This document shows positions 64-43,258 of a stretch of 50,126 bases of DNA, in pieces. Below the pieces are notes generated by a model. That model searched no databases. It saw only the letters and a list, made by a program, of their open reading frames with translations, and had not been told where the DNA came from. Made by a program: the position numbers and the translations under genes. Location of the stretch: the sequence record PZ445405.1; one strand, given 5' to 3'. The stretch is from a phage. Each line of letters opens with the position of its first letter. The first letter of the stretch is position 1.

Positions 64-540
64 ATGAATTGGGCTGAATTTTTTAGATACGAAGATGGAA
101 ATCTGGTAAGGGTTACCACAACCTCAAGTAGAGCTATTGAGGGCATGGTTGCTGGAAGCTTGTCTGGCAATGGCTATCTGCACATAAGAATAGGCGACAG
201 GCGTGTAAAAAACCATCTCATAATTTGGGAGATGCACAATGGAAGGATACCAGAAGGGATGGAGATAGATCATATCAATCACATAAAGACAGATAACAGG
301 ATCGAGAATTTAAGGCTCGTAAGTCACAAACAGAACCTATCAAACGCATCTCTTAGGTCAGACTCGTCAACTGGTGCGAGTGGCGTTAGTTGGAACAGAA
401 ACAGGCAGAAGTGGCACGCTTATATAAAGTCTAACTACAAGAGGATGCACATAGGATTTTTTGATTCCTTTGATGATGCCGTAGCAGCAAGAAAGAAAAA
501 GGAGATTGAATTGGGATTTCATGAGAATCACGGAAAATAG
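64..540 (+). CDS. HNH homing endonuclease (HNH + AP2-like DNA-binding domain), copy 1
   Basis: Motif EIDHINHIKTDNRIENLRLVSHKQN; paralogous to ORFs at 30756-31235 and 37032-37517 (all start MNW..); ATG at 64 preferred over GTG at 55. Confidence 0.8.
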   Translation: MNWAEFFRYEDGNLVRVTTTSSRAIEGMVAGSLSGNGYLHIRIGDRRVKNHLIIWEMHNGRIPEGMEIDHINHIKTDNRIENLRLVSHKQNLSNASLRSDSSTGASGVSWNRNRQKWHAYIKSNYKRMHIGFFDSFDDAVAARKKKEIELGFHENHGK

Positions 541-9883: not shown

Positions 9884-10540
9884 ATGGCCCATCTCAGCAA
9901 TGGCACTCAGGTCTTCGTAGAAGGCTCTAGGGGAGCTACAATTGACGTAACTGCAATTTCCAACGCAGTTACCCCTGTTTTAACTGTATCTGACGCCTCT
10001 GGCTTGGTTGTTGGTGATTACCTGCTTTTCACCTCTTCTGCTTCCACGCTTCTGGCTGACAAGCAAGTTCGAGTTACCGAAATCTCTGGCACGTCAGTAA
10101 CTGTTGAAGGTATTGATACCTCTAGCACTACAAAGTTCCCAGCCGGTTTAACTGGTGAAGTTGTTAAGATTACTTCTTGGTTCGAAGTTCCGTGCGTTCA
10201 GGATGTATCTACTGATGGCGGCGAACAGCAGTTCGTTAACTTCCAGTGCCTGTCAGATGACCGTGAACAGCAGATTCCGACTTATAAATCTGCGGTAACT
10301 AACACCTTTACCTTTGCTCATGAGTACACTAACCCGGTTTATCCGGTTCTGCGTAACTATGATGAGTCTGGTCAGGTTGTTGCGATTCGTCTGTTCGTAC
10401 CTAGAGCCAGCGAAATGCGTTTGCAGTCCGGCACTATCGCTTTCAACGACACCCCGACCATTGGCGTTAACGAAATCGAAACGGTATCCATCGCAGTATC
10501 CATTCGTGGCCGCCTGTCCTCTGTGGCAGCAGAAGTTTAA
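9884..10540 (+). CDS. Major tail protein (putative)
   Basis: 218-aa Ser/Thr/Val-rich ORF upstream of the chaperone and tape measure genes, followed by a strong terminator. Confidence 0.55.
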   Translation: MAHLSNGTQVFVEGSRGATIDVTAISNAVTPVLTVSDASGLVVGDYLLFTSSASTLLADKQVRVTEISGTSVTVEGIDTSSTTKFPAGLTGEVVKITSWFEVPCVQDVSTDGGEQQFVNFQCLSDDREQQIPTYKSAVTNTFTFAHEYTNPVYPVLRNYDESGQVVAIRLFVPRASEMRLQSGTIAFNDTPTIGVNEIETVSIAVSIRGRLSSVAAEV

Positions 10541-10547
10541 AACACCA

Positions 10548-10569
10548 ACCCTCTTCGGAGGGTTTTTTA
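10548..10569 (+). terminator. Rho-independent terminator
   Basis: ACCCTC-ttcg-GAGGGT followed by TTTTTTATT. Confidence 0.7.
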
Positions 10570-10573
10570 TTGC

Positions 10574-10650
10574 ATAGCACTTTTTGCCAAAGATCTTATT
10601 CAACTTTGCTGTATAGTTACCTCATCGAAACGAAATGAGAGATTAAAGAA
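10574..10650 (+). promoter_or_regulatory. Promoter cassette, T-rich-centre variant (ATAGCACTTTTTGCCAAA, 22 bp, TATAGT 10612-10617, leader CATCGAAACG)
   Basis: Same geometry as the canonical cassette; drives the lipoprotein ORF. Confidence 0.55.
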
Positions 10651-11037
10651 ATGAAAGCAATCATCGCAATTATGGCAACCTTGTTACTCGCTGGCTGTAA
10701 CTCAGATAAGGTAAAGACACTTAACGTTGATCTGGCATCAAACGAATGCAAGAACATCGTATACAACGCGACGGTTAACAATGAATCATTTACTCAGCTT
10801 TCATTCAAACACCCAGAGCTCAAAGATGCCGTTATGTACGTGGCGCACATTGAATGCACGAAATCTGTTAACAATTTTACCCGCGGCGTTGTAGTTGAGC
10901 ACAACACAACATTGGCAAAAGTATCAAAGCCTAGTGACGCTTCAATCGCGATGGTTTATACTAATATCTACAATTTAGAAGGTTTCGCTAAGGAAGTTGG
11001 CGAGAAGCTGGCTTACTCACGCGTTGTTATGAAATAA
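10651..11037 (+). CDS. Lipoprotein (moron inside the tail operon)
   Basis: Signal peptide with lipobox LLAGC (MKAIIAIMATLLLAGCNSD); own promoter cassette and flanking terminator. Confidence 0.6.
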   Translation: MKAIIAIMATLLLAGCNSDKVKTLNVDLASNECKNIVYNATVNNESFTQLSFKHPELKDAVMYVAHIECTKSVNNFTRGVVVEHNTTLAKVSKPSDASIAMVYTNIYNLEGFAKEVGEKLAYSRVVMK

Positions 11038-14908: not shown

Positions 14909-15664
14909 ATGTTAAGTCCAAAGTTTGAAAATCAGTTGCAAAGCCTTTTCCCTGGCGAAATTGTGACACTAATCCAGGTTGATGGCACCTCCTTTGGCGG
15001 TCTCGTTTATTCGTTCCATAATGAGAACATTTCATACACGCCAGAGGAAATCATGCTGGCCCAGATGAATGGCGATCCACTACCAGAGAAGACAATCACA
15101 TTTCGCGGAGAGGAATATGGACCTCGCCCATTCGGAATCTCTGGTATCAATATGACCTCTGACGGAAAGGCCAACAAAGTGACGCTAACAGTATCAAACG
15201 TAGACCAGCGAATTAGCGCATTGATTCGAACATACAATGGACTGGTTAGGGCTAAGGTTACTATCTGGATTACTACGCGAGACAACATCAACGAAGATGG
15301 AAGCATTGCTGATGGGGACTATCGCAGGTTCGTTTACTTCATTGAGAGACCAAAGCAGGTTGATTACAAAACGGCATCATTTGAGCTTAGCTCACCTATG
15401 GATATGGATGGAATTTACATTCCTGCGAGACTTGTTCAGTCTGTTTGCTATTTTGCCTCCAGGGGATGGTATCGAAGTGGTAATGGGTGTTCATATGCTG
15501 GTAACAGATACTTTAACAAGGATGATGAGCCGGTGGCAGACCCTTCATTAGACTTCTGTGCGGGAACTGTTAACAGCTGCAAGCTTAGATTCGGTGAGAA
15601 TAATCAGTTGGATTTTGGCGGTTGCGCGGCGGCAAGCCTTCAGGCAAAAGCGAATCAAAGCTAA
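14909..15664 (+). CDS. Minor tail protein (lambda gpL-like) with C-terminal Cys cluster
   Basis: C-terminal cysteines (CYFASRGW..GCSYAG..FCAGTVNSC) as in the lambda L iron-sulfur motif; position. Confidence 0.75.
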   Translation: MLSPKFENQLQSLFPGEIVTLIQVDGTSFGGLVYSFHNENISYTPEEIMLAQMNGDPLPEKTITFRGEEYGPRPFGISGINMTSDGKANKVTLTVSNVDQRISALIRTYNGLVRAKVTIWITTRDNINEDGSIADGDYRRFVYFIERPKQVDYKTASFELSSPMDMDGIYIPARLVQSVCYFASRGWYRSGNGCSYAGNRYFNKDDEPVADPSLDFCAGTVNSCKLRFGENNQLDFGGCAAASLQAKANQS

Positions 15665-15738
15665 ATAGCACGAATTGCTAAACACCAACGCGACGGATGG
15701 CGTATAGTTACTTCATCGAAACGAGAGGAGATAAATAA
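15665..15738 (+). promoter_or_regulatory. Canonical promoter cassette (box 15665-15682, TATAGT 15703-15708, leader CATCGAAACGAGAGGAG)
   Basis: Near-identical to the cassette at 537-611; TTGCTA to TATAGT spacing 22 bp. Confidence 0.6.
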
Positions 15739-16056
15739 ATGAAAGCTAAATTTATTGCAAAATCGGAATGGTACACTGGTGAGTACGAATTTACCACTGG
15801 AGAGGATTACGAACTTAGTCACCAAGGCGGCAACTTCTATTCAACAATAGACAATAACGGTCTTTTGGCTTACTTTGAAAATGGTCGATACTATGAATTT
15901 GAGATCCTCAAAAATGAATCAAAAGAGAAGGAGATGACTTACAGAATGAATGGGGATGTGGTTACTGAATCATTCTTTTATGACAGGCTAATGGAGGCTG
16001 AGGCACTTAAGTCCAGAGGGGTTTCTGTATTTATAGATTTTGAGGTTAGTTTTTAA
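15739..16056 (+). CDS. Hypothetical small acidic Tyr/Gly-rich protein (cassette-driven moron)
   Basis: Motif TGEYEFTTGEDYEL similar to ORFs at 612 and 34351. Confidence 0.45.
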   Translation: MKAKFIAKSEWYTGEYEFTTGEDYELSHQGGNFYSTIDNNGLLAYFENGRYYEFEILKNESKEKEMTYRMNGDVVTESFFYDRLMEAEALKSRGVSVFIDFEVSF

Positions 16057-17509: not shown

Positions 17510-20500
17510 ATGGCTGAAGAGATTAAGATTTATGGTGCCAAGGGTGGTAGCCAGAAGCAGCATCAACCAGTAGAGCAGGAAGATAACCTGATTTCGTTAA
17601 ACAAGGTTAAGGTTCTTTTGGCGGTTGCTGACGGAGAGGTGGATCCAAACTTCTCAATGAAGGATTTATACCTTGCTGACGTTCCAGTACAAAATCAGAA
17701 TGGCACCTACAACTATGAAGGAGTTCGAGCTGAGTTCCGCTCTGGTACGCAGTATCAGGATTACATCGCTGGGCTTGACGGTGCTAACTCAGAGATTCAG
17801 GCTTCACGTGAAATCACGAACGACACCCCGTACATTATTGCGGTTAACAATACTCAGCTATCAGCAATTAGAGTTAAGCTATTTTGGCCTCGGCTGGTTA
17901 AGCAAGAAAGCAACGGAGACCTGAACGGAACTACTTGCGAGTACGCAATTGACCTTTCTGTTAATGGTGGCGCTTATCAGGAATACACTCGCGGAGTTGC
18001 AAACGGGAAGACAACTACGGGTTACGACCGCAGTATTCGTGTAAACCTTCCAGCTGAATTTGATAGCGCACTGGTTCGAATTCGCAAGATTACAGCAGAT
18101 TCAACAAGTAGCACGCTGGTTAATGGAATGCAGATTACAACCTATCAGGAAGTAATTGACGCTAAATTCCGCTACCCGCTTACTGCTCTGGTTTATGTTG
18201 AGTTCGGATCTGACCTGTTCCCTAACGGCATCCCGACAATCTCTATAAAGAAGCGCTGGAAGTTGATTCAAGTCCCGACAAACTACGACCCGGAGACCAG
18301 GACTTACAGCGGCACATGGAATGGCCTGTTCAAAATGGCGTGGTCAAACAACCCGGCCTGGGTTCTCTATGACTTAGTGACAAATCGCCGCTACGGCCTT
18401 GACCAGCGAGAGTTGGGTGTAGAGATTGATAAGTGGGGGCTATATGAAGCTGCGCAATTCTGTGACCAGATGGTGCCGGATGGTAAGGGTGGTATGGAGC
18501 CGCGCTACCTGTGCGATATGGTTGTGCAGAATAAAGTTGAGGCCTACACGCTAATTCGTGACATCTGCTCAATCTTCCGTGGACTGACTTTCTATGATGG
18601 CGAAAAGATTGGTATCGTGGTTGATAAGCCTCGAAATACATCTTACATCTTCACGAATGATAACGTTGTAAACGGATTATTCAGCCGAACTTTTGCCAGT
18701 GATAAGAGCCTTTACACTACGGCAAACGTTCAGTTCGATGATGTGGAAAACAACTATCAGCAAGATGTAGAGCCGGTATTCGAGTTGGAGGCTACTCGCA
18801 GATTTGGATTCAATCCAGTCGACCTTACGGCAATCGGATGTACGCGAAGAAGTGAAGCAAACAGGCGCGGCAGATGGCTCCTGAAAACCAACCTGAGAAG
18901 CGAAACTATCAGCTTCACTACCGGGTTGGAAGGCATGATTCCGATGATTGGCGAGGTGATTGCGGTTAATGATGCCGCATGGTCTAGCAACTATCAGCTG
19001 AACCTTTCCGGTCGTATTGAGTCAGTTCAGGGATTGCAGGTTTTTACACCGTTCAAAGTTGACGCTGCGCCGGGCGACAGAATTCTTCTAAACAAGCCTG
19101 ACGGAAGCCCAGAGGCAAGAACTATTGCCAGCGTTTCGGAAGATGGTAGAACAATCAACCTTAACACTGCTTTCAGCTTTGTGGCTCAACCTGATACTGT
19201 TTTTGCAATTGATAAGGACAATCTAGCGCTTCAGCAATATGTTGTGACAGGGATTCAAAAAGCAGACTCTGACGGTTCGGATTCTTTCCAGTATACGATT
19301 ACCGCAGTAGAGTATGACCCGAACAAGTACGACGAGATTGACTACGGCGTTAACATTGCTGACCGTCCAACTTCAATTGTTGAACCTGACAGATTGTCGC
19401 CGCCTGAGAATTTAACAGTATCAAGCTACAGCAAGATTGTTCAGGGCTTATCAGTTGAGACGATGGTTATCGGATGGGATAAGGCGCCATACGCTAAAAC
19501 TTACAACGTTCAATGGAGGAAAGAAAATGGCAACTGGATTAACGTACCCAGAACAGCAAGCACAGAGGTTGATATCGAGGGTATTTACGCAGGAATCTAC
19601 GACGTTAGGATTCGCAGCGTATCAGATACTGAAAACGTGTCCGCCTGGTCTGGCATTGTAACCAAAAGCCTCACCGGAAAGATTGGTAAGCCACCAAAGC
19701 TGCAGGTTATAACGGCGAGTGATGATGAGGTTTTCGGAATTCGAGTTAAATGGGGGTTTGCTGACGGATCTGGTGATACTGCTTACACTGAGCTTCAGCA
19801 AGTGGCTGATAATGGTGATGGTACATACAACCCAGACAGTGCTAGCCTGTTAACTTTGGTCCCATATCCTCAGTATGAATACTGGCACACGCCGATTCAA
19901 CCCGGCAATGTTATATGGTATCGCGCAAGGATTATAGATAGGATTGGTAATACATCTGATTGGACGGACTTCGTCAGAGGGATGAGTACTGATGACGCTC
20001 AGAAGATCGCTGAATATATCAAGGTTGATATCGAGCAGTCTGAAGGATTTAAATACCTACAGCAGAATGCAATTGATAAAAACCAAGACATTCAGAATCA
20101 AGCTGAGGCAATAATCGAGAACGCACTAGCAAATGACTCAGATGTAAGGCGCCAGTCTGTTAAGAATGGGAAATTTACAGCTTCAATAACCGAAAGTCTT
20201 CAGTTGATTGCTGACGAGCAGCAAGCCAGGGTAACTCAGATATCTCAGCTTGAGGCGGATTTTGACGGAAGGGTTAATTCTTTAAACACTGAACTAAGAG
20301 AGGTAATAACAACTGGTGATAGCGCTCTATCAAGATCAATTGATGATTTAAGGGTTGAGATTGACGAGAACATATCATCACAAATAACAAACATAAACAC
20401 GGCTTTAGTAACAGAAGCAGAAGCAAGAGCCACGGCTGACACAGCTTTGTCTGCAAGGCTTGGTCAGAACGAGGCGGCACTAAACCAGAAGCTGGATGCT

Positions 20501-22174: not shown

Positions 22175-22258
22175 TTTGTATTCCTTAGTAAGTTCGTTTC
22201 GTTTCGATGGAGTAATAGTATCGCATCCTTGCGATCAGTGTTTAGCAATTCGTGCTAT
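22175..22258 (-). promoter_or_regulatory. Canonical promoter cassette on the minus strand (box at 22241-22258)
   Basis: Reverse complement reads ATAGCACGAATTGCTAAA, 22 bp, TACTAT, CATCGAAACGAAACG; the box also encodes the C-terminus (NSTNC) and stop of the upstream gene. Confidence 0.55.
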
Positions 22259-22931
22259 TCGCCAAGAATACAGCTCTTGCAAATCCACGAGGTGTAAGGC
22301 TGCGAATTACCTTTGTCTTCTTGCTCTTGCCGCCAAGTTTCTTGTATTGGTCAGAGAAACCACCATCAACCTCCACAGGAATCGCCTCAGGCCATCTAAA
22401 CCCATTACCAGACCAAATACATGTCTTTTTAGGGTATGCATCTCTTGGCTTTATTAGGTCTCTAAAAAACGGGTGTAAATCATCTTCCGGCAAATATCCA
22501 CCGTACTCATATGGATGGAAAGTGTTATCAGGTTTTCGCCAAAGTGATGAAAGTACGCTGATTGGGTTTTCAATCATGTATGGCACCTCGTACTTTTCAG
22601 CCAGGTTGAAAGCAAACTTGCAAGTCTCTGCCGCCTCAATTTGAAAATTAGGATTGGCAAGACGCTTACGCTCGAAGTGTCTTGAGCCGCTCACCGCTAA
22701 ATCCGTACAAGGCGGGAATGCTAAAATGAAATCAGGCTTCACATCGAAATCGAAGTCAGCATCTATCCAGGTGTTAACGTAGGTAATATTCTCATGCTCA
22801 ACTTTTGCGTTTAAGTCACCGTAGCTCCCGTGGTCTGACTCATCAAAGTTGAAGCAGTAGCAAGTGTGACCAGCTTCAGCCCAATCTTTTACCGCCAGAC
22901 CAGAACCATCAAATAAAGACCAGATAACCAT
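22242..22931 (-). CDS. Short DNA C5-cytosine methyltransferase-like protein (229 aa)
   Basis: Motif I-like LFDGSG, catalytic motif IV-like FPPC, motif VI-like ENPIS; too short for a canonical C5-methyltransferase. Confidence 0.4.
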   Translation of the reverse strand: MVIWSLFDGSGLAVKDWAEAGHTCYCFNFDESDHGSYGDLNAKVEHENITYVNTWIDADFDFDVKPDFILAFPPCTDLAVSGSRHFERKRLANPNFQIEAAETCKFAFNLAEKYEVPYMIENPISVLSSLWRKPDNTFHPYEYGGYLPEDDLHPFFRDLIKPRDAYPKKTCIWSGNGFRWPEAIPVEVDGGFSDQYKKLGGKSKKTKVIRSLTPRGFARAVFLANSTNC

Positions 22932-23003
22932 ATTAAAACCCCTCTCGTTAAAGTGCGGCGATTATACCGCGCAAAATTTATTGTTCTTTGGCAATTCGTG
23001 CCA
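22932..23003 (-). promoter_or_regulatory. Promoter cassette variant on the minus strand (box TGGCAcgaatTGCCA, 22 bp, TATAAT, leader AACGAGAGGGG)
   Basis: Perfect palindrome variant of the box; -10 TATAAT (rc of 22961-22966); upstream stop codon abuts the box. Confidence 0.55.
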
Positions 23004-23005
23004 TA

Positions 23006-23494: not shown

Positions 23495-24136
23495 TTATAC
23501 CACCTTATTTTCGATTTGCATTACGTTATTAACTGCCAGCATAACATTTCGATTCTGCTGCTGCGTTGTAACTACAAAAGACTCCATCTTAATCCGATCT
23601 AAATCTTTTTCCGCACCCTCTCGGGTTAATTGCATTACCCGGTCATGGTTATATTTTTCCAATTCCGTCAACCCCACCTTATCTTCAAGCTTCCAGCAGT
23701 ACACCTGCATTTCACTATATATTTTAGAGTTTACAGCCATTTGGCCTTGCATGCTATGAATGTGGTTATCTTTCTCTTTAATGATTTTCTCGTAATGTGC
23801 CACGATGTTTAGATTTCCAACAGCTTCGATCTTTGACTCAAGTTCATGAAGCCTTCGGATTACTTTATGGCGAAGTGCGACGCTGTATCCGGTGATTAGC
23901 GTTTCGGTAAGTTCCTTGTTAAGCAAAATCTCTGATGTATAGCCACGAACGTCAGTAAGTACTTGATAATCATCATGACTCAAATCTGAGTCATCGTTAT
24001 AATGTAACAATTCATCGATCATTTCTTGAGCGTCCCTCACGACGTTGCCATGTCGCTTTCCGGTTAATTCGGCAACTTCCTTTGTGCTCATCATTGCTTT
24101 TGGTTGTTCTTTGTACACTTTAATATTCATTTTCAT
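23495..24136 (-). CDS. Rha-family phage regulatory protein (putative)
   Basis: N-terminal motif STKEVAELTGKRHGNVVRD typical of the Rha domain; start ambiguous (24136, 24130 or 24172). Confidence 0.55.
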   Translation of the reverse strand: MKMNIKVYKEQPKAMMSTKEVAELTGKRHGNVVRDAQEMIDELLHYNDDSDLSHDDYQVLTDVRGYTSEILLNKELTETLITGYSVALRHKVIRRLHELESKIEAVGNLNIVAHYEKIIKEKDNHIHSMQGQMAVNSKIYSEMQVYCWKLEDKVGLTELEKYNHDRVMQLTREGAEKDLDRIKMESFVVTTQQQNRNVMLAVNNVMQIENKVV

Positions 24137-24172
24137 CTCTCTTCTGTTTTTCATGACCCAAATCTGGATCAT

Positions 24173-24276
24173 GATTTGATGTTCGGCCTGAAATTCAGGT
24201 TGGATGACGACACCATTGCCGCCATGCGCCTAAATATAACTAAAGATACCCAGTTGTCTTTAGCAATTAGTGCTAT
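24173..24276 (-). promoter_or_regulatory. Promoter cassette on the minus strand (box at 24259-24276, centre CTAAT; -10 TATATT)
   Basis: Reverse complement ATAGCACTAATTGCTAAA followed 22 bp later by TATATT; long leader with a possible 18-codon upstream ORF. Confidence 0.45.
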
Positions 24277-25927: not shown

Positions 25928-26002
25928 ATAGCACGAATTGCTAAAGACAAAATTAACGAGTGGGGTATGATTGCCCCATCAACAACGAACGAGGTTAAAA
26001 TT
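25928..26002 (+). promoter_or_regulatory. Canonical promoter cassette (box 25928-25945, TATGAT 25966-25971, leader CATCAACAACGAACGAGG)
   Basis: Box overlaps the stop of the upstream gene; 22-bp spacing conserved. Confidence 0.55.
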
Positions 26003-29771: not shown

Positions 29772-29789
29772 ATAGCACGAATTGCTAAA
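29772..29789 (+). promoter_or_regulatory. Orphan palindromic box ATAGCACGAATTGCTAAA without downstream -10 or leader
   Basis: Perfect box lying between two minus-strand genes, 24 nt from the tail-fibre start codon. Confidence 0.4.
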
Positions 29790-29842: not shown

Positions 29843-30759
29843 AGTAGTTCGCTTGCCTTATAGATTCTCTTTCTTATTCCTGACTTGAAAAAATTATCAT
29901 CATTTGGCATTACCACATCAATATTGCGATCGTCAGCAACGGCGAGTAAATCAAGATCGTGGCGAGTACAAGCGATGCGTAACTTGTATTTTCTAAGCGC
30001 GTAAGCAACCATTTCCATGTTGTAGATGGAGTAGCAAACAAGCACGCAGCGGTTGCCAGTAGCAATGTGAACACGATAGCCGTCAATGAGATTATCGACC
30101 AGATAAGCGTAATCATCATCCTTAAAGGAACCAATAACAGAAACAGATTGGCGAGTATAATCTTTTGCAGCATAACTAACACCTCCATATTCATTGATAA
30201 ACATTACATTACACATTTCTTCTGATATGCCGTCACTATAAGCCATAAAGCACGGCACTGCGTGTATTAGTTCGCCTGATTTTGTTCTGCCAACATCAAA
30301 GCCAAACTCGCTATAGATTCCCTCGTATGTACTGAGCGGAGTTGATTCTACTCTTTCAGTCCTTTCCATTATCTCTAAGCATCTTTCGTGGTCAATCTGA
30401 GCGCCCATTTTGTAGATCTGGGTTCTTGATGCTTGCTTGTTTGCTTTAACTATAACCTCAATTGGTGTTAAGTTCAGCCAGTCACCAAGCAAATTTACTG
30501 AATCGGCGAAGGACGATCCAGTGCACTTCATGACCCATCCTATACCGGAGTCACTCCCGCATTTCGAACAAACTGCCGCGCCATTTCCTTTTTCACTGCC
30601 TATTTCGTCGGTAAATCTGAATCTGTCAGTGCCAAAGCAGTATGGGCATGGTCCGTGCTTCTTACTTAGGTGTCTATCATTCCAACCAAGTTCCTTTGCA
30701 TAAAATGATTTCCACAATCCGGCCATCTTAGGTATAACTTCATTCTTATCGTAATTCAT
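29836..30759 (-). CDS. DNA primase-like protein with zinc-ribbon
   Basis: Cys motifs CPYCFG..CSKCGSD in the N-terminal region; ATGA coupling with the upstream HNH gene; replication gene context. Confidence 0.5.
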   Translation of the reverse strand: MNYDKNEVIPKMAGLWKSFYAKELGWNDRHLSKKHGPCPYCFGTDRFRFTDEIGSEKGNGAAVCSKCGSDSGIGWVMKCTGSSFADSVNLLGDWLNLTPIEVIVKANKQASRTQIYKMGAQIDHERCLEIMERTERVESTPLSTYEGIYSEFGFDVGRTKSGELIHAVPCFMAYSDGISEEMCNVMFINEYGGVSYAAKDYTRQSVSVIGSFKDDDYAYLVDNLIDGYRVHIATGNRCVLVCYSIYNMEMVAYALRKYKLRIACTRHDLDLLAVADDRNIDVVMPNDDNFFKSGIRKRIYKASELLN

Positions 30760-31235
30760 TTGCTTAACCCGTGATTTTCGTGAAAGTTGTATTTTCTCTC
30801 TGCTTCAATTCTTACTTTATACGCCTGCTCTGGAGTATCGAAGTTCCCAAGGTGTAACTGCTTACCGTCAACCTTGATGTGAGCCTTAAATTTTCCGTGA
30901 TTTAGCTTTGCCACTCCACAATAACCAGTTGTTGATAAAACGCTAAGCCTGCAATTTCTTGAGTTACCTTGATTTGTTGTTACTCTTAGGTTTTCTATTC
31001 TGTTATCTAATTTGTTATGGTTTATATGATCAATGTAGTCGCCATTTTGAAGTTCTCCATTAAACATCTCCCACACAACTCTATGTACGTAAGTCCTAAA
31101 GCCATTAACAGACACTTTGTAATAGCCAGATGTAGATAGTGAGTTGCACTCATCGCCAACCTTAACACGTCTTGCAGTGCTAATCTTCCAATGCAATTTG
31201 CCATCTACATAGTAAAAATAATCATGCCAGTTCAT
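30756..31235 (-). CDS. HNH homing endonuclease (HNH + AP2-like), copy 2
   Basis: Motifs DHINHNKLDNRIENLRVTT and paralogy to the other two copies. Confidence 0.8.
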   Translation of the reverse strand: MNWHDYFYYVDGKLHWKISTARRVKVGDECNSLSTSGYYKVSVNGFRTYVHRVVWEMFNGELQNGDYIDHINHNKLDNRIENLRVTTNQGNSRNCRLSVLSTTGYCGVAKLNHGKFKAHIKVDGKQLHLGNFDTPEQAYKVRIEAERKYNFHENHGLSK

Positions 31236-31308
31236 TTTCTTCTCTCCAATAAAAAAGGATGTACCGATTATGGCACATCCAATCCTTTAATCTTTAGCTT
31301 TTCGTGCT
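31236..31308 (-). promoter_or_regulatory. Cassette variant upstream of HNH-2 (box AGCACGAAAAGCTAAAG, terminator hairpin, CATAAT, TTTTTTATTGGAGA RBS junction)
   Basis: Box overlaps the C-terminus and stop of the upstream gene; hairpin GGATGT..ACATCC. Confidence 0.45.
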
Positions 31309-31760
31309 GCTTCGTTAGCTGCCTTAATCTTGCGCCACGATCGACACTCTGGCTTGGTGGCCAGTTCAGCCTCAGTTACCACACGCAGCATGTGACGTTT
31401 TTTGCAGCGTAGAGTTAGTGGTTTTCCGTTACCGTCGAATTGCAGGTCTGGTCTACAGAATGTGGCGCGAAAACCTTCTCCGGTTCGTTTGTAGTAGTTG
31501 TGCGACAGTTGAGCGCCACGTGCAGAAATCATACCACGCTTAAACCACTCTTCTACAGCCTGCGGCGTTACCTTTAACTGCTTTGCGATATTCGCCTTTG
31601 TGCCGAAGAAATCAAGAATCATCTCTAACCTTGCGCGTAACCCAGCCCTTACCTCATCTTTCAAAACGTAGTAACCTGAAGGTCGCTTTCGCTGCTTTTT
31701 ATCTTCAGTGCGGATGGTTCCGTTATTGCCGTTAATGGTTCGCTTGTCAATTGTACTCAT
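31287..31760 (-). CDS. Putative HTH DNA-binding protein (157 aa)
   Basis: HTH-like segment ANIAKQLKVTPQAVEEWFKRGMIS; basic; first gene of an early minus-strand operon. Confidence 0.45.
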   Translation of the reverse strand: MSTIDKRTINGNNGTIRTEDKKQRKRPSGYYVLKDEVRAGLRARLEMILDFFGTKANIAKQLKVTPQAVEEWFKRGMISARGAQLSHNYYKRTGEGFRATFCRPDLQFDGNGKPLTLRCKKRHMLRVVTEAELATKPECRSWRKIKAANEAARKAKD

Positions 31761-31772
31761 TTCATTACCTCG

Positions 31773-31861
31773 ATAGCATTTTTTGTTAAAAGTCATTCTG
31801 ATTTGATGGTAGTATTGTACTCAATTAAACGCTACAAGACAATTTTTATAGGAATTTAGAT
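31773..31861 (+). promoter_or_regulatory. T-rich-centre cassette upstream of the helicase gene (ATAGCATTTTTTGTTAAAAG)
   Basis: Box-like sequence followed at about 21 bp by TAGTAT; ATG at 31862. Confidence 0.4.
31814..31842 (-). promoter_or_regulatory. Sigma70-like promoter on the minus strand (TTGTCT, 17 bp, TACAAT)
   Basis: Canonical 17-bp spacing, divergent from the helicase cassette; would drive the HTH, HNH-2, primase operon. Confidence 0.4.
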
Positions 31862-33856
31862 ATGTTGCCTATCGAGAAACTGGTTGCCAACTTTGATAAA
31901 GAAAGAATTAAACAGATTCAGAAAGACTATCAGTTTGGCGAGATAACCCCTTACGAGTTCCAGTGCGTCACATTTGATGCAATCGGAAAGGCCATTGGAA
32001 AGTACGAGGCACCATTTATCGCGGACCTTTCCGTGTCTGCTGGTAAGACAATCATTCTGGCTATGATTGGTAAGCGCATGGAGCAGCTTGGGCTTCCTTA
32101 TATGGTTCTCTCTCGCCAGTCAGAAATTATCAGTCAGAACTCAGAAGAGCTTCGTAATTTCGGTATCCGTAACAGCGTCTATTGCGCCGGCCTCAACGTT
32201 AAATCGGTTTACTACCCAACCATAGTTGCTAGCGAGGGTACGGCAGCTAACGGCTTGTTTAAGGGTCTTGGTGACTACGTTCCTGCTGTTATAGCTATTG
32301 ATGAGTGTCATATGGTGGACCATATGGATATCGTGGAAGCTGAAGAGAACGAAGAAACATTTGAGCAAATGAGCACAAAGAAAGGCGAGATGGTTTTCAA
32401 GGATGGTGTTAACACTGGATTGATAGGCACAGGGCGAGCGCAGTACACACTAATTATCACTGAGATGAAACGTCGCTGCCGCGAGAAGTACGGTCGTGAG
32501 CTTCGTATATTCGGTCTAACTGGCAGCCCGTATCGTAACAACGATCATATCGTCGTTAGCAACCCAAACATCCGTGGATTTTGGCGCAAGACGGTTATTC
32601 AGGTTCCAACCAATTACCTGGTTGATTTAGGTTTCGTTGTTCCCACAGTTTACGGTGAAGTTGGCGATCTGGGATATGACCTTGCGGAGTTTGCGCCGGA
32701 TGGCAGTGATGGCGTGAAAGACTTTAGCAAGAAAGAAATGGAAGCGATGCAGGAAAAAATTCATCAAAACCAGTCCATGACTCAAAAGATTATGGGTTTT
32801 GTTGTAAAAATACTAGAGACTCGTAACGCCGCATTGGTAACGTGTGCTGGTAAACTTCACTGCGAAGAAGCTGCTGCAGCGCTACCAGATGGATACCCTT
32901 ACGCCATCATCACAGACTCTACTGGTGAGAGGAAGCGCAGAGAGATTCTTGACGATTGCCAGACAGGGAAGTATAAAATAATATTCCAGATTGGTTGTCT
33001 AACTACGGGGGTGTCGGTTCCACCGTGGGATACAAGCGTTATACTTAGAAAGATCGGCAGCCTTACACTACTGATCCAGCTACTTGGTAGGGGTATGCGA
33101 ATACTCAAGAAGAAACATAAAGAACTTGGAATGGTTAAGGACGATCATTTGGTTCTTGATTTCGCTGGTGCGCTTGATGACATGGCGGAGCTTTACTTTG
33201 ACCCAATTATTGAAGAGATTCAGGCTGAGAAGTTTAAATCATCAAGAAAAGGTGGCGATGAGGTTCGCCAGTGTCCGCAATGTGGTTATGAGAACTCTCC
33301 GTTCGCTCGCAGGTGTGGTAACAAGATTGATGGAAAGCGTTGTGAGCACTTTTTCAGCTTTACGGTTTGTGAAGATATTACTGACCCGCAAACAAAGGCT
33401 GTTATAAAGAAAGGCTGCGGTACTCGCAATGACATAGCAGCAAAGGTTTGCAGGGAATGCGGAGAGATGCTTAAAGACCCAAATGCTAACCTGACTGGCA
33501 AGATGTATCGTCGTGGTGATTACCTTCGTGTTTATGATTTTCAAGTTGGGTTAAGTAAGAATCAGACAGGCATTGTAGTTAAGTACAACATCATGGCGCA
33601 TAACGGAGAGAGGTTTAATGCTTGGGAGTTCTTTAATCCAGAATCAGACCATAGAGTTTGCAGTGTGCTTTGGAAGAACTTCTGCCTTGCTCATATTGAG
33701 AATCGAACTGAGGCCGCGCGAATTGGAAGACTGAAGAATGCCAGAATGATTATGACTAACTTGGATAAGTTCCGTGCGCCAGTTCAGGTTACACACCGAA
33801 GGAATGGCAAAGGAAAGGACGTGATCGCTTTTAAGAATTTTGGAGAATTGCTATGA
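31862..33856 (+). CDS. ATP-dependent DNA helicase (SF2-like) with C-terminal zinc-ribbons
   Basis: Walker A-like SAGKT, DECH box (IAIDECHMVD), C-terminal CPQCGYEN..CGNK and CRECGEM Cys clusters. Confidence 0.7.
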   Translation: MLPIEKLVANFDKERIKQIQKDYQFGEITPYEFQCVTFDAIGKAIGKYEAPFIADLSVSAGKTIILAMIGKRMEQLGLPYMVLSRQSEIISQNSEELRNFGIRNSVYCAGLNVKSVYYPTIVASEGTAANGLFKGLGDYVPAVIAIDECHMVDHMDIVEAEENEETFEQMSTKKGEMVFKDGVNTGLIGTGRAQYTLIITEMKRRCREKYGRELRIFGLTGSPYRNNDHIVVSNPNIRGFWRKTVIQVPTNYLVDLGFVVPTVYGEVGDLGYDLAEFAPDGSDGVKDFSKKEMEAMQEKIHQNQSMTQKIMGFVVKILETRNAALVTCAGKLHCEEAAAALPDGYPYAIITDSTGERKRREILDDCQTGKYKIIFQIGCLTTGVSVPPWDTSVILRKIGSLTLLIQLLGRGMRILKKKHKELGMVKDDHLVLDFAGALDDMAELYFDPIIEEIQAEKFKSSRKGGDEVRQCPQCGYENSPFARRCGNKIDGKRCEHFFSFTVCEDITDPQTKAVIKKGCGTRNDIAAKVCRECGEMLKDPNANLTGKMYRRGDYLRVYDFQVGLSKNQTGIVVKYNIMAHNGERFNAWEFFNPESDHRVCSVLWKNFCLAHIENRTEAARIGRLKNARMIMTNLDKFRAPVQVTHRRNGKGKDVIAFKNFGELL

Positions 33857-34272
33857 ACATAACAGATAAAGAAGATTACATTGAGTTTTACCCGGGCCCG
33901 GTTAAGTATTGCCCTAAAGAGGATGACGAGCAAATCTTTTGCTCTGATTGGGTTAAGTATCATTACCCTCAGATTGTTTACTGGCACACGGTTAATGAAT
34001 CGATGAAGACCATTGGACAGGCAAGAAAAGACCAGGCCAAAGGTTTGCTTAAGGGGGTTTCGGACTGCTTATTCCTGATACCTGAATCACTTCGTGGTAA
34101 ATACCCTTTTGGAGCCATAGAGCTAAAAAGGGCCGGGAAGACGCAGGCGAGTCCAGTCAGCGACGAACAGAAGTCCTTCCTTAAGAGCGTCAGAGAATCG
34201 GGCGGCTTCGGGGCTGTAGCTTACGGACGTGAGGGTTTTCTTGCGGCATTCAAAGAAATGATTTCAAAATAG
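33853..34272 (+). CDS. VRR-NUC domain nuclease (putative)
   Basis: Motif GVSDCLFLIPESLRGKYPFGAIELKR (D..E.K core); ATGA coupling to the helicase gene. Confidence 0.55.
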   Translation: MNITDKEDYIEFYPGPVKYCPKEDDEQIFCSDWVKYHYPQIVYWHTVNESMKTIGQARKDQAKGLLKGVSDCLFLIPESLRGKYPFGAIELKRAGKTQASPVSDEQKSFLKSVRESGGFGAVAYGREGFLAAFKEMISK

Positions 34273-34350
34273 CACGAATTGCTAAAGACGTTTCGGTGAG
34301 TTGGTGTATTATCTATTCATCGAAACGAAACGCACAAAGAGAGAAACAAA
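34269..34350 (+). promoter_or_regulatory. Canonical promoter cassette (box 34269-34286, TATTAT 34307-34312, leader CATCGAAACGAAACG)
   Basis: Box contains the TAG stop of the upstream gene; 22-bp spacing. Confidence 0.55.
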
Positions 34351-34862: not shown

Positions 34863-35050
34863 TTGGAATCTGCGTAAAAACAAATGGACGCTTTACACTG
34901 CTCGAGGATTACGAAATCAACTTTGATTCAGGCGGCGCAATAACAGTAAAAGGAGAAGATGAATTACATTGGTTCCTTAGTTATCAAGGTGATGGCTACT
35001 ACGGTTGCACGGATTGCTACGGAAAAGAAGTTAGCTTCTTAGTAGAATAG
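34859..35050 (+). CDS. Hypothetical protein (63 aa)
   Basis: ATGA overlap with the upstream gene; SD GGAG. Confidence 0.35.
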   Translation: MIGICVKTNGRFTLLEDYEINFDSGGAITVKGEDELHWFLSYQGDGYYGCTDCYGKEVSFLVE

Positions 35051-35120
35051 CACTTTTTGTTAAAACTCAAATCCAGGGATGGATTATATTAAGCACATAA
35101 ACAACGAAGAGGGTTAAGAG
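35047..35120 (+). promoter_or_regulatory. T-rich-centre cassette (ATAGCACTTTTTGTTAAAAC, 22 bp, TATATT 35085-35090)
   Basis: Box overlaps the TAG stop of the upstream gene; leader with SD AAGAGGG. Confidence 0.5.
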
Positions 35121-36959: not shown

Positions 36960-37031
36960 ATAGCACCTTTTGTTAAAACAGTAGCCGCGAAAGCGGCTAT
37001 TATTGTTTTATACAAACGATAGGAGATTGAA
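36960..37031 (+). promoter_or_regulatory. T-rich-centre cassette upstream of HNH-3 (ATAGCACCTTTTGTTAAAAC, hairpin, TATTAT 36998-37003)
   Basis: 22-bp spacing; hairpin AGCCGCG-aaa-GCGGCT in the spacer; SD AGGAG. Confidence 0.5.
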
Positions 37032-37517
37032 ATGAATTGGCATGATATTTTTGAATACAACGATGGCATTCTTTATCATAAAGTTAAGTTATGTATAAGA
37101 AATGATGTTAACGTTGGTGATATTGCTGGGGGGGGCGTTAGGCAAAACGGCTATCACTACGTGAATTACAAAAATAAGTTTTACAAAAGGTCAAGGGTTG
37201 TATGGGAGATGTTTAATGGAGATATACCTGAGGGATTTGTCATTGATCACGTCAACCATGACGCGACAGATGACAGGATAGAAAACCTAGAGTGCAAGGA
37301 GCGCAGGGATAACATGGTTAATGTAAAGCTAAGGATTGATAGCTCCTCTGGTGTAACTGGTGTAGCAAGAAAGAGCGGTAATAAGTGGAGGGCATACATA
37401 ACAATCATGGGTAAGCAGAAGTCCAAGAGCTTTAACACGTTTGAGGATGCTTGCGCACAGAGGATTGAATGGTCGGTAACTCATGATTTTCACCCAAATC
37501 ACGGTGGAAAATACTAA
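37032..37517 (+). CDS. HNH homing endonuclease (HNH + AP2-like), copy 3
   Basis: Motif VIDHVNHDATDDRIENLE and paralogy to copies 1 and 2. Confidence 0.8.
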   Translation: MNWHDIFEYNDGILYHKVKLCIRNDVNVGDIAGGGVRQNGYHYVNYKNKFYKRSRVVWEMFNGDIPEGFVIDHVNHDATDDRIENLECKERRDNMVNVKLRIDSSSGVTGVARKSGNKWRAYITIMGKQKSKSFNTFEDACAQRIEWSVTHDFHPNHGGKY

Positions 37518-37602
37518 ATAGCACTTTTTGCCTAACCCATGCCGTAGAAATGCGGCATAATCACCACATCGAAACGAGATTAACTAAACGAGGAAACGCA
37601 AG
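37518..37602 (+). promoter_or_regulatory. T-rich-centre cassette (ATAGCACTTTTTGCCTAAC, hairpin, CATAAT 37556-37561, leader CATCGAAACGAG)
   Basis: 22-bp spacing; hairpin ATGCCG-tagaa-ATGCGGCAT. Confidence 0.5.
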
Positions 37603-40922: not shown

Positions 40923-40996
40923 TATTTCTCTCCGTGCTGATTCTGAGCGGTCATTATATCAACGACCGCTTATAATTCATTATCAATTTTTGCTAT

Positions 40997-41347: not shown

Positions 41348-41428
41348 TTTATTTACCTTTCGTTATTTCGTTTCGATGAGATGAATATACAGGAAAAGCC
41401 CCCGAAGGGCTTTATCAATTAGTGCTAT
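41348..41428 (-). promoter_or_regulatory. Promoter cassette on the minus strand (box rc of 41411-41428, terminator-like hairpin in spacer, TATATT, leader CATCGAAACGAAA)
   Basis: Box ATAGCACTAATTGATAAA; spacer 23 bp contains GCCC-ttcg-GGGGC; the box encodes the C-terminal NSTN-stop of the upstream small ORF. Confidence 0.5.
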
Positions 41429-42620: not shown

Positions 42621-42692
42621 ATCTATACCCTCGTTGTTGATGAGCTAACTATACCCTCAACAGCCGCGCTTGTCTTTAGCAAAAAGTGCTAT
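42621..42692 (-). promoter_or_regulatory. T-rich-centre cassette on the minus strand (box rc of 42675-42692, TATAGT, leader CATCAACAACGAGGG)
   Basis: Reverse complement ATAGCACTTTTTGCTAAA; spacing 22-23 bp. Confidence 0.5.
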
Positions 42693-42699
42693 TCGTTAG

Positions 42700-42800
42700 A
42701 TTTATGGATTGTTGCGGATATTGCAATGATTCCCATGATTATTGCACATATAGCAATATTGCTTCAGATGCAATGATGTTTTTGATTGTTGCGAAATGAG
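42700..42800. repeat. Cluster of short direct repeats (GATTGTTGCG x2, TGCAATGAT x2, ATTGC motifs) in ORF-free DNA
   Basis: Repeated 9-10-mers read directly; no credible ORF. Confidence 0.5.
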
Positions 42801-42865
42801 CAATAAAGTAGTGAGTGAGTGAATGAAAGATGGATGGACTACCATACAAGTTGATTTTGATTCTG

Positions 42866-43200
42866 CTAATCCATTTTCACGCTTACACGTAACGCCCGTA
42901 GCGCGATGTAAGCCAACGCCTATCGTTACGCGAGTTACGCGCAGCTACGCCTAGACTTACACTATAAGTGCCTAATATATATATATATCTTCTTTCTATT
43001 ATTATTATTATTATTATTATTATTGTATGTAAGTCATGTAACGGGGTTTCCGGCGATATCTATATGTTTTTTCCTATCAGTTATAGCCTTGGCTATAATT
43101 TAAGGTATGGAGTGGGTGTTTTGGGGCCATTTGCCTCGTTACACGCACGACACGCCACTTACATTAAGCTATAGCTGGGCTAGCATACCATTTCGCGTAA
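42866..43200. repeat. Iteron plus microsatellite control region B (paralog of region A)
   Basis: ACGTAAC 42887, CGATGTA 42904, G(T/C)TACGC x3 at 42925/42934/42944, (AT)7 42975-42988, (TAT)9 42997-43023, palindrome AGCTATAGCT 43167-43176. Confidence 0.7.
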
Positions 43201-43229
43201 CGACCCCCAAAAGTTACCAAAAATTACAC

Positions 43230-43258
43230 TTGACTACATGTGTAAGTCGGGATATGAT
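43230..43258 (+). promoter_or_regulatory. Strong sigma70-type promoter (TTGACT, 17 bp, TATGAT) with conserved leader
   Basis: Near-consensus hexamers at canonical spacing; leader AAACGAGAGGAG precedes ATG 43290. Confidence 0.6.

Follow-up and report, generated by a model that had tools for sequence, protein, structure and literature searches.

A predicted promoter cassette precedes the lipoprotein gene

The stretch from 10574 to 10650 begins with an 18-bp box whose centre is rich in T and ends directly before the ATG of a lipoprotein gene. Other boxes in the same genome have the centre CGAAT or CTAAT. An earlier note had divided the boxes into two sub-families, which may differ in affinity for one regulator or mark two temporal classes. 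We asked whether these classes are real and what the difference between them may mean.

The window, which is the whole analyzed stretch of 50,126 nucleotides (PZ445405.1), is the complete, circularly permuted genome of an Rtp-like (Drexlerviridae) phage, a T1/Rtp-like coliphage. It carries 22 copies of a promoter cassette with the order 18-bp box, 20-nt spacer, -10 hexamer without a -35, start region with CATCGAAACGA, SD and ATG. The box follows the consensus ATAGCAC-NNN-TTG-N-TAAA. Its arms form the dyad TAGCA-N5-TGCTA with arm centres 10 bp apart, which places the half-sites one helical turn from each other. The boxes are intergenic and point along transcription, and most units have their ATG 72-85 nt after the first base of the box; one orphan box sits at 29772. 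Among the 10-mer classes of T1 and Webervirus, that of the ATAGCAC word ranks first in frequency.

The stretch 10574-10650 is one complete copy of this standard Drexlerviridae cassette, as predicted from its elements. An intrinsic terminator (10547-10570, +; stem AACCCTC/GAGGGTT plus T-run) ends the major tail protein unit directly upstream of the box. The T-class box ATAGCACTTTTTGCCAAA (10574-10591, +) has its dyad at about -42 from the presumed start and is followed after 20 nt by the -10 hexamer TATAGT (10612-10617, +). No -35 was found 16-18 nt upstream of this hexamer, and a consensus scan of 10300-10800 returned no sigma-70 -35/-10 pair. The start/leader motif CATCGAAACGA (10623-10633, +), with a putative start at A10624, the SD and the ATG at 10651 complete the unit. 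The gene behind it (10651-11037, +; MKAIIAIMATLLLAGC...) encodes a 128-aa lipoprotein with the lipobox LLAGC and is the orthologue of rtp34; within the tail operon it forms a moron-like insert. In Rtp, RobRod40, A110b, T145P1 and 2004V, the orthologous box is T-class as well.

For comparison, 10 genomes from three subfamilies (Rtp-like, T1, Webervirus) were analyzed. The spacing between box and -10, described earlier as conserved in both classes, was confirmed: the hexamer starts 20 nt (+/-1) after the box in the window, and the same holds for 141 of the 174 A- and T-class boxes of the 10 genomes. At this fixed distance, 184 of 191 box-like sites (96%) match TATAAT in at least 4/6 positions. 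The mean -10 match was 4.8-5.0 of 6, and the best -35 match never exceeded 4/6 (mean 2.7-3.0). The CATCGAAACGA motif accompanies 81 of the 174 boxes. An extended-10 TG is found with about 30% of them, and these might fire without any activator. The box dyad lies 30 nt upstream of the first -10 base; with the A of the conserved CAT as start site, this would put it at -42. A reading of the box as a misplaced -35 was rejected: between TTGCTA and the -10 there are 22 nt, more than sigma-70 can span, and no other hexamer would suit as -10.

Two box classes in the window

By their centres, the 22 boxes comprise 15 with N-AAT (A class) and seven that are T-rich (T class). Eleven A-class centres read CGAAT, three CTAAT and one AAAAT. 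The boxes named canonical earlier had been called perfect palindromes. Perfect TAGCA/TGCTA arms were found in 10 of the 15 and not in the rest, and the 5-nt centre is never palindromic. At 22987-23004 (-), upstream of a C5-methylase-like gene, the box ATGGCACGAATTGCCAAA is palindromic through a symmetric double change to TGGCA/TGCCA.

CGAAT centres were located at 537-554 and 15665-15682 (both + and with perfect arms), at 22241-22258 (-) upstream of a Cor-type lipoprotein, at 25928-25945 (+) upstream of erf, and on the plus strand at 34269-34286, 44290-44307, 44567-44584, 45441-45458 and 46430-46447. The box at 44567 has a TGTTA arm, and its orthologous promoter has GTTT, CTTT or TTTT in other phages; the 2004V orthologue of the box at 45441 is T-class. 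CTAAT centres were found at 24259-24276 (-) upstream of a Rha/Ant-like gene and, with a TGATA arm, at 41411-41428 (-) and 45863-45880 (+). The A-class box ATAGCAAAAATTGATAAT (40979-40996, -) precedes the gene of a 527-aa ATPase (rtp67 orthologue). The orphan palindromic A-class box (29772-29789, +) is without a good -10 and adjoins the primase terminator. It lies 23 nt before the ATG of the tail-fibre gene on the opposite strand and is conserved in T1 (34902).

The T-class pattern of the earlier note matched the window seven times at no more than two mismatches, compared to 0.02 matches expected from shuffles. Six matches are T-rich (10574+, 31773+, 35047+, 36960+, 37518+ and 42692-), and the remaining one, 24276-, is centred on CTAAT. 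The ends of the window cut through one more T-type box, ATAGCACTTTATGCAAAG, the seventh of its class (50124-50126 joined to 1-15, +). As had been claimed, T-type boxes stand ahead of the lipoprotein, the helicase (Pfam Helicase_C) and small ORFs. The helicase box ATAGCATTTTTTGTTAAA (31773-31790, +) is 12 nt from the ATG of a divergent regulator gene. ATAGCACTTTTTGTTAAA (35047-35064, +) precedes small ORFs of the rtp58-60 region, ATAGCACTTTTTGCCTAA (37518-37535, +) a 58-aa ORF behind which holin, endolysin and spanin are encoded. ATAGCACTTTTTGCTAAA (42675-42692, -) opens the leftward early arm as its first promoter. Its right arm is a perfect TGCTA, as it is in 14 of 33 T-class loci family-wide, so that a degenerate right half is a tendency of the T class and does not define it.

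A T-type box had further been assigned to all three HNH endonuclease genes, which proved correct for two. The box ATAGCACCTTTTGTTAAA (36960-36977, +) is the predicted promoter of the cassette with the HNH_3 gene 37032-37517 (+) and is nearly identical to the T1 orf15 cassette. Rtp and RobRod40 lack the unit 36960-37517, a box-to-box insertion. The junction-spanning box, identical to RobRod40 1569, would serve the HNH_3 (+AP2) gene 65-540 (+), whose TAG stop lies inside the next box (537). The third HNH_3 gene (30756-31235, -) is without a T-rich box. Upstream of it, a degenerate A-rich box-like sequence GCAGCACGAAAAGCTAAA (31293-31310, -) was found inside the 3' end of the regulator gene, 20 nt before CATAAT (31272-31267).

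Both classes are kept among related phages

Across the 10 genomes the central dinucleotide was bimodal (AA 98, TT 76, AT 4, TA 1), which bears out the proposed division into sub-families. The A type reads ATAGCAC-N-AATTG-C/A-TAAA and the T type ATAGCAC-TTTTTG-T/C-TAAA. At positions 7-10 the centres were GAAT in 63, TAAT in 24, AAAT in 10 and TTTT in 68 boxes. The A class leaves position 7 free (G62, T25, A10, C1), but 69 of the 76 T-class boxes have a T there. Conservation is much higher in the left arm than in the right. A TGTTA right arm was present at 16 of 33 T loci versus 1 of 45 A loci (p ~9e-7). The class positions diverged by 0.10-0.12 between orthologous promoters, position 7 by 0.30 and the spacer by 0.11-0.39.

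Thus the two classes are real and seem to be maintained by selection, because the class positions diverge about three times more slowly than their free neighbour, both classes are present in 10/10 genomes and the helicase box is T-class in 10/10, T1 and Webervirus included. The class was also unchanged at rtp55 (7/7), and the pre-lysis box at the 37518 locus was T-class in 7/8 genomes. Such retention fits a functional difference, which may be a differential affinity for one regulator.

A separate possibility is that the classes are lineages of one cassette without functional difference. In this case any TpA-free A/T tract would be tolerated at the centre, and cassettes would be copied or exchanged by recombination between boxes and mobile HNH/moron units. 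Several observations agree with such a history. The class was mixed in 11 of 38 orthologous groups, some of them with an identical spacer, which shows that class changes are tolerated at a promoter without evident harm. The spacers of mtp3 2544 (CGAAT) and BHUENT1 38628 (TTTTT) are identical, and 2004V 2963 combines an rtp62-type box with a 45441-type spacer; whole boxes have thus been swapped. The HNH cassettes are box-to-box units with their own T-like box. A and T boxes are interleaved within the same gene arrays, and no difference between the classes was seen in -10 match, -10 position, -35 match, extended-10 TG, leader motif or spacer hairpin stability in the 10 genomes. However, intermediates are nearly absent (5/184), and the slow divergence of the class positions, the persistence of both classes in all three subfamilies and the loci that kept their class speak against this reading. 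The class also correlates with a second position, the TGTTA of the right arm. We regard lineages without a functional difference as rather unlikely.

The proposal of two temporal classes is weakly disfavoured. Small early ORFs are found behind both classes, and the same is true for replication and recombination genes (helicase T, erf A) and for late functions (lysis cassette T, virion protein after TerL A). This overlap, the interleaved arrays, the 11/38 switched groups and the similarity of the cassettes all argue against separate timing.

A candidate regulator of the boxes

The 157-aa regulator encoded at 31287-31760 (-) is our candidate for the box-binding protein. It is the orthologue of Rtp52 and T1 gp23 and probably has a Cro-like HTH. 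It matched P22_Cro with E = 4e-6, below the Pfam cut-off, and phrog_2856 ('transcriptional regulator') with E = 3e-84. Its best solved relative is P22 Cro (PDB 1rzs, E = 0.0016 over 27 residues), and the T1 record notes an HHpred match to P22 C2. Homologues were found in 826 phage records. The link between regulator and box draws on their co-occurrence and on a proposal of 2006: Wietzorrek et al. (J Bacteriol) reportedly proposed the conserved inverted repeats of Rtp as Rtp52 sites. They are said to have counted only about 10 of these repeats, the palindromic A-type ones. In our scan, Rtp has 20 box sites, including 8 of the T class. Rtp52 itself is annotated as a putative regulator with HTH (AM156909).

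Between T1 and Rtp the regulator is only 53% identical, while the box is nearly unchanged. Within Drexlerviridae the box is constant, and a test for covariation of regulator and box is therefore without power. The weakest tblastn match, in Pseudoalteromonas phage H40/1, was rejected as a distant orthologue, since it is only a 79-aa Cro-like protein. The Rha/Ant-like protein (23495-24172) was likewise discarded as a box binder, because it is absent from Rtp and RobRod40, which both carry boxes.

A sigma-70-like promoter TTGTCT-17-TACAAT (31814-31842, -) is a putative promoter for the regulator; its 9/12 match is weak, as the scanned region should hold about one of this quality by chance. It overlaps the helicase -10 on the opposite strand, which would place the T-class box at 31773 inside the 5' leader of the regulator. 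The rightward early arm begins with another box-less sigma-70-like promoter, TTGACT-17-TATGAT.

Two different phage DNA-binding proteins could also read the two classes, or the regulator alone could bind one class and the regulator plus a partner the other, giving two regulons that perhaps differ in timing. The T class is marked at several positions (7 T, 8-9 TT, 13 T), a signature that resembles a distinct specificity, and further HTH-type proteins are at hand, namely gp07 and gp10 of the T1 record (Rtp homologues rtp69 and rtp66) and the Rha/Ant-like protein of the window. Against this, the two classes share an invariant left arm and have the same geometry and spacing, early, replication and late genes lie behind both, and class swaps at orthologous promoters are frequent. 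Moreover, Rtp and RobRod40 carry both classes and lack the Rha-like gene. Two binding proteins are thus very unlikely.

Proposed mechanism

Our preferred reading, to which we give a probability of roughly 45%, is that one Cro-like phage regulator may act at about -42 at both box types, with the centre and the right arm tuning binding or output. The regulator gene would be expressed from its own box-independent sigma-70-like promoter. Transcription from the box promoters would start at the A of CAT, with the box dyad at about -42. A and T boxes would be operators for the same phage-encoded Cro-like dimer, the Rtp52/T1 gp23 orthologue, which at -42 could recruit or stabilize host sigma-70 RNA polymerase at promoters without a -35, in an arrangement like that of lambda cI at OR2 activating PRM. 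The centre would sit between two contacted half-sites, where AATT and TTTTT would both form narrow-minor-groove tracts without a TpA step. The T-tract and the frequent TGTTA arm would most likely alter affinity or activation strength. Box class would then grade promoter output or the regulator concentration needed, and would not specify a separate temporal programme. Binding to the T-type box in the regulator leader, within the helicase/regulator intergenic region, might feed back on regulator synthesis. The 10-bp distance of the arm centres and the symmetric double change at box 23004- would fit a dimer site, whereas the lower conservation of the right arm speaks against a purely symmetric site.

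A site covering -50 to -33 could equally serve a repressor, and the box may not be an activator site at all. It could be a cis element for RNA polymerase, with the T-tract at about -43 to -39 as an UP-like contact for alpha-CTD, or an orientation-dependent repressor site ('stoperator'). In the T class only, a T-tract overlaps the proximal UP subsite. The repeats are oriented along transcription, the regulator resembles phage repressor and Cro proteins, and the boxes just before the opposite-strand start codons of the regulator and tail-fibre genes resemble roadblock or operator positions. Stoperator, enhancer and UP-element ideas are also listed in the study of phage TLS (PMC11447400). However, the invariant ATAGCAC and TTG-N-TAAA give the box a much higher sequence specificity than that of UP elements, promoters without a -35 should be weak alone and call for an activator rather than a repressor, and the phages are virulent. 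An UP element as such was rejected: it covers -59 to -38 and has no specific G/C, in contrast to the conserved G/C in ATAGCAC and TTG of a box that spans about -50 to -33. The L5-type stoperator was rejected as well, as 96% of the sites have a -10-like hexamer at the fixed distance of 20 nt +/-1. Hence we judge a non-activator role to be quite unlikely.

Going beyond the single-regulator reading, the boxes could form a two-tier operator code of the whole family. One Cro-like activator at about -42 would act on the classes with differing affinity or DNA-shape dependence, and would set the order or level of some 20 promoters in every T1-like phage. The T-type leader box would provide feedback, and the boxes would also serve as recombination joints for HNH and moron cassettes. 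As a whole, this extended version is doubtful. A literature search found no usable transcriptome or start-site data on T1-like phages.

Relation to known systems

The box and its A/T/G subgroups are already published for phage TLS (2024; PMC11447400). The 21-nt direct repeats of TLS, aaATAGCACnnnTTGnTAAAA, were grouped there as A, T and G by the centres AAA, TTT and GAA, and the authors reported the repeat also in T1, Rtp and Rogue1 and left its function open (PMC11447400). It is the same element as the box, with the same orientation, the same distance to the start codon (~76 nt) and the same subdivision by centre. Our finding is thus a published repeat with published subgroups, observed again in a new genome. 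Beyond the TLS paper (PMC11447400), we add the fixed 20-nt spacing to the -10, the predicted geometry around -42, the link between T-centre and TGTTA, and the conservation of class at orthologous promoters. A text search of the literature with the box sequence returned only unrelated primer matches, and no mention of Rtp52 was found in the searched texts. T1 ranks among the classical phages, and its family, the Drexlerviridae, is very large, as the 826 records with a regulator homologue illustrate. If the box is the activator site of nearly all promoters and its variants grade the response, few experiments would define a family-wide transcription programme.

In Mu (Mor/C) and at T4 MotA middle promoters, a phage factor replaces the -35 contact. 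The Mor site is an imperfect dyad near -43, similar to the predicted position of the box. A MotA box has its centre at -30, leaves 11-13 bp to the -10 and needs AsiA; a MotA-dependent middle promoter was rejected here, since the box ends 20 nt before the -10. With the stoperators of mycobacteriophage L5 the boxes share many asymmetric, orientation-dependent copies between genes. In contrast, stoperators are without a fixed distance to promoter elements and belong to a temperate phage, acting through its repressor.

Koudelka, Harrison and Ptashne are said to have found in 1987 that non-contacted central bases set repressor and Cro affinity at the 434 and P22 operators. These operators resemble the boxes in their conserved, contacted outer half-sites and a varying A/T-rich centre, and the regulator here probably has a P22-Cro-like HTH. 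They differ in their even spacing and their role in a lysis/lysogeny switch; the box has a 5-bp spacer and only two discrete centre types. At lambda PRM, cI bound to OR2 activates transcription, and class II activator-dependent promoters in general have their site near -42 and a weak or absent -35, and rely on an activator that touches sigma region 4 or alpha. The box promoters have a usable -10 like PRM and would share with it an HTH dimer site near -42, with start site and protein contact both predicted here. Unlike PRM, about 20 promoters per genome share this site, and the phage is virulent.

Two classes of a conserved promoter box

The 18-bp promoter box with arms TAGCA/TGCTA is a real feature, well above chance and conserved throughout a phage family. 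The box at 10574-10591 (+) reads ATAGCACTTTTTGCCAAA. An earlier note had described a degenerate pattern for boxes of this type, and the pattern is real: at up to two mismatches it occurs seven times in the window, compared with 0.02 matches expected from dinucleotide-preserving shuffles. ATAGCAC alone is present in 19 copies against 6.5 expected. Boxes were listed by collecting every ATAGCA with its flanks and by a mismatch scan of the circularised genome. Together these gave 22 boxes of promoter type, fifteen with an N-AAT centre (A class; CGAAT 11, CTAAT 3, AAAAT 1) and seven with a T-rich centre (T class; 10574+, 31773+, 35047+, 36960+, 37518+, 42692- and the junction box at 50124). Canonical boxes had been called perfect palindromes, which applies to the 5-nt arms only, in 10 of 15 cases. 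The box at 22987-23004 (-), ATGGCACGAATTGCCAAA, upstream of a C5-cytosine-methylase-like gene (22242-22931), keeps its palindrome by a symmetric double change to TGGCA/TGCCA. An orphan, perfectly palindromic box without a usable -10 lies at 29772-29789. It adjoins a bidirectional terminator downstream of the primase gene, 23 nt ahead of the opposite-strand ATG of an 849-aa tail-fibre gene, and the arrangement is also kept in Rtp, RobRod40 and T1 (34902).

The window has about 86-89% nucleotide identity to Escherichia phage Rtp, RobRod40 and other Braunvirinae (Drexlerviridae), and its gene order is that of Rtp and RobRod40. When the 3' end (ATA, 50124-50126) is joined to the first fifteen bases, GCACTTTATGCAAAG, the sequence ATAGCACTTTATGCAAAG results, which together with the following 26 nt is identical to RobRod40 1569. 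Thus the record covers the complete genome in circularly permuted form, with its ends inside a box, and this junction box is the promoter of the HNH gene 65-540. A non-coding region between the two divergent early arms (42700-43230) contains (TA)n and (TTA)n runs, several short ACG/TTAC-type word repeats and a canonical sigma-70 promoter (43230-43258, see below); a role as pac or origin is possible.

For comparison we used six Rtp-like genomes (Rtp, RobRod40, Msk, A110b, T145P1 and vB_EcoS-2004V), two Webervirus-type genomes and T1. The cassette and both box types were present in each of them, and ATAGCACTTTTTG and AATTGCTAAA rank among the most frequent 10-mers in the T1 and Webervirus genomes. 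The classes are discrete. The two central positions of all promoter boxes are AA in 98 cases and TT in 76, with AT in four, TA in one and five others. The A class shows no fixed base at the preceding position (G62, T25, A10, C1), where 69 of 76 T-class boxes have T. With one count per orthologous locus, the right arm TGCTA was found at 35/45 A loci but 14/33 T loci (p = 0.002), and TGTTA at 1/45 A loci compared with 16/33 T loci (p ~9e-7). In the window alone, the difference in perfect arms (1/7 T, 10/15 A, p = 0.06) is suggestive only. The degenerate right half ascribed to T boxes is a tendency but not a rule. Taken together, these differences define the T class as a multi-position variant, ATAGCAC-TTTTTG-T/C-TAAA.

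Architecture of the promoter cassette

Every unit in the window has the same layout, an 18-nt box, a 20-nt spacer and a -10 (TATAGT, TATAAT, TATTAT or CATAAT). About 5 nt further on follows CATCGAAACGA or a near variant and then a Shine-Dalgarno sequence, and in most units the box starts 72-85 nt before the ATG. In the 10574 unit, a terminator (10547-10570) precedes the box, the -10 is at 10612-10617, CATCGAAACGA at 10623-10633 and the ATG at 10651. The product of this gene (10651-11037) has the lipobox LLAGC and is a lipoprotein as described before.

The cassette has no -35. A consensus scan of the 10574 promoter gave no -35/-10 pair. In ten genomes, a TATAAT match of at least 4/6 was found at the fixed distance in 184 of 191 box-like sites, and the best -35 match at 16-18 nt reached at most 4/6, with a mean of 2.7-3.0. 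The right-arm TTGCTA resembles a -35, but at 22 nt it is too far from the -10. Judged from the conserved CAT, transcription would start at its A, 7 nt past the -10, which would place the box at -50 to -33 and its dyad at -42. An element read by the polymerase itself, or a repressor site, is an improbable account of the box.

The first ~10 transcribed bases (CATCGAAACGA, variants CATCAACAACGA) are conserved at most box promoters of the Rtp-like phages, T1 and Webervirus. That about 20 different mRNAs share a conserved 5' end suggests that this sequence itself has a function, such as in promoter escape, RNA stability or translation.

Other differences between the classes were sought in the -10, spacing, -35, leader and hairpin of 98 A and 76 T boxes, and none was found. 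Mean -10 matches (of 6) were 5.0 for A and 4.8 for T, best -35 matches (of 6) 3.0 and 2.7, and the leader motif was present in 45/98 and 36/76. The -10 spacing is alike in both classes, as had been stated, starting exactly 20 nt past the box in 82/98 A and 59/76 T boxes. Hairpins in the spacer/-10 region are far stabler than shuffled controls in both classes (mean MFE -7.7 for A and -7.0 for T, compared with -3.6 and -3.4 kcal/mol). Examples are 45459-45480, 41390-41410 (-), 25946-25975, 45881-45912 and 40950-40978 (-). Some consist of a GC stem and a T-run and would be terminators of the upstream unit lying within the next promoter; in others the stem arms flank the -10 hexamer.

Class conservation, switching and mobile units

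Gene content did not separate the A from the T class. The T class precedes the helicase, lysis cassette, HNH genes, moron and small early ORFs, and the A class erf, the Cor lipoprotein, an ATPase, the virion protein after TerL and again small early ORFs. In the early arrays both classes adjoin. This speaks against two clean temporal classes, to the extent that timing can be predicted from module. That each class is served by a different binding protein is very improbable in our estimation.

Promoters were then grouped by the protein encoded downstream. The helicase promoter is T class in 10/10 genomes, T1 and Webervirus included, and its gene (31862-33856) carries a helicase C-terminal domain, in agreement with the earlier assignment. 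The promoter of the small ORF before holin, endolysin and spanin is T class in 7/8. The moron promoter between the major tail protein and the tape-measure chaperone (10574 locus) is T class in all six Rtp-like genomes having it, and the gene downstream varies among genomes. The rtp55 promoter is A class in 7/7. Among 164 orthologous promoter pairs of Rtp-like phages, divergence per position was 0.30 at position 7, which is free, but 0.10-0.12 at the two positions that define the class; it was 0.17 at position 13, at most 0.10 at the remaining box positions and 0.11-0.39 in the spacer. Class is therefore constrained, though not absolutely, with 27 orthologous groups uniform and 11 mixed. Orthologous promoters can carry boxes of opposite class on the same or nearly the same spacer, such as mtp3 2544 (CGAAT) and BHUENT1 38628 (TTTTTT), or, with the spacer intact, 2004V 2963 and window 45441. 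Such switches point to recombination between boxes, which would replace a box as a whole, rather than to stepwise mutation.

The HNH gene 37032-37517, including the box and promoter that belong to it, makes up a unit of 558 bp that reaches from box to box (36960 to 37518). The unit 36960-37517 is not in Rtp or RobRod40, and in RobRod40 the exonuclease stop codon directly abuts the resident box. T1 has this cassette at the equivalent place with an almost identical promoter. The HNH gene 65-540 lies in a unit of 539 bp (50124-536) between the junction box and box 537. HNH genes move in such cassettes, each made up of box, promoter, leader and ORF and inserted exactly at a resident box. The T-type box had been placed upstream of all three HNH genes. 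Three HNH_3 genes do exist, but only two have it; the third, 30756-31235 (-), has only a degenerate A-rich look-alike, GCAGCACGAAAAGCTAAA, within the 3' end of the regulator gene and 20 nt before CATAAT. Every box-preceded HNH paralogue (MNW...) of the window, Rtp, RobRod40 and T1 has a T-like centre (CTTTT, CCTTT, CTTTA or CTTAT); in this subset the simplest view is that the T-rich centre came along with the mobile cassette. A general account in which both classes are functionally neutral cassette lineages, is unlikely, and among the alternatives considered the least so.

Further features were observed. A promoter and 105-aa gene at 15665-16056, between tail genes L and K where Rtp has the HNH gene rtp40, are a diverged paralogue of unit 537-992 (27% identity, near-identical promoter spacer). 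A Rha/anti-repressor-like gene (Pfam Phage_pRha; 23495-24276 (-)) has its own A-class box without the usual leader motif; it is missing from Rtp and RobRod40 and hence belongs to the accessory genes, here of a virulent phage. In T1, two T-class late-operon boxes (15069-15086 and 18833-18850) are oriented against the genes, and one occupies the site of the Rtp-like lipoprotein moron, where the T-class box faces forward.

A Cro-like candidate regulator

A conserved Cro-like protein is encoded beside the invariant T-class helicase box, in a gene divergent from the helicase gene (31287-31760 (-)). It is the orthologue of Rtp52, annotated as a putative transcriptional regulator with an HTH and similar to T1 gp23. 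It matches PHROG 2856 'transcriptional regulator' (E = 3e-84) and, below the gathering score, Pfam P22_Cro (E = 4e-6). Its best solved relative is P22 Cro (1rzs; E = 0.0016, in a search with a small profile), and the T1 record notes an HHpred match to P22 C2. Homologues were found in 826 phage records. From Rtp to T1, with 53% overall identity, the N-terminal DKRxxNGNNGT...KKxRxR, the HTH and the C-terminal GFRA...DLxFDxNGK...RVV are conserved. A sigma-70-like TTGTCT-17-TACAAT at 31842-31814 (-) overlaps the helicase -10; it is weak evidence, with about one chance match expected in the scanned region. As the regulator promoter, it would place the always-T-class helicase box, which lies 12 nt before the regulator ATG, within the regulator leader. 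A box-free canonical sigma-70 promoter, TTGACT-17-TATGAT (10/12), is located at the head of the rightward early arm (43230-43258). A coherent order would therefore be that the regulator is made box-independently and then turns on ~20 box promoters.

In their description of the Rtp genome, Wietzorrek et al. 2006 reportedly put forward ten conserved inverted repeats, located ahead of genes, as sites for Rtp52. The 2024 re-annotation of phage TLS lists a 21-nt direct repeat, aaATAGCACnnnTTGnTAAAA, at 21 places, following the direction of transcription ~76 nt ahead of start codons and present in T1, Rtp and Rogue1 too (PMC11447400). Its supplementary table includes both box types, and its authors left the function undecided between stoperator, enhancer-binding site and UP element (PMC11447400). 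Both the box and its subgroups had thus been published before, and the earlier note was a correct rediscovery. The comparison adds four points, namely the fixed spacing, the geometry at -42, the association of the T centre with the TGTTA arm, and conservation that is specific to the locus and interrupted by occasional swaps of whole boxes, which reduces the question to a small set of decisive experiments.

Our preferred reading, tentative and with a probability of roughly 0.45, is that the Cro-like regulator would bind the box as a dimer and activate from -42, and that the box centre, between the contacted half-sites, would tune affinity. Both AATT and TTTTT lack TpA and, as A/T tracts, should narrow the minor groove. 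This would fit the rarity of TA-containing intermediates, but would only partly explain the rare ATTT (4 cases). Lambda cI at OR2 activates PRM, and the proposed box position and activation would resemble this arrangement. In 434 and P22 operators, non-contacted central bases tune affinity, and the variable box centre may be likened to these bases.
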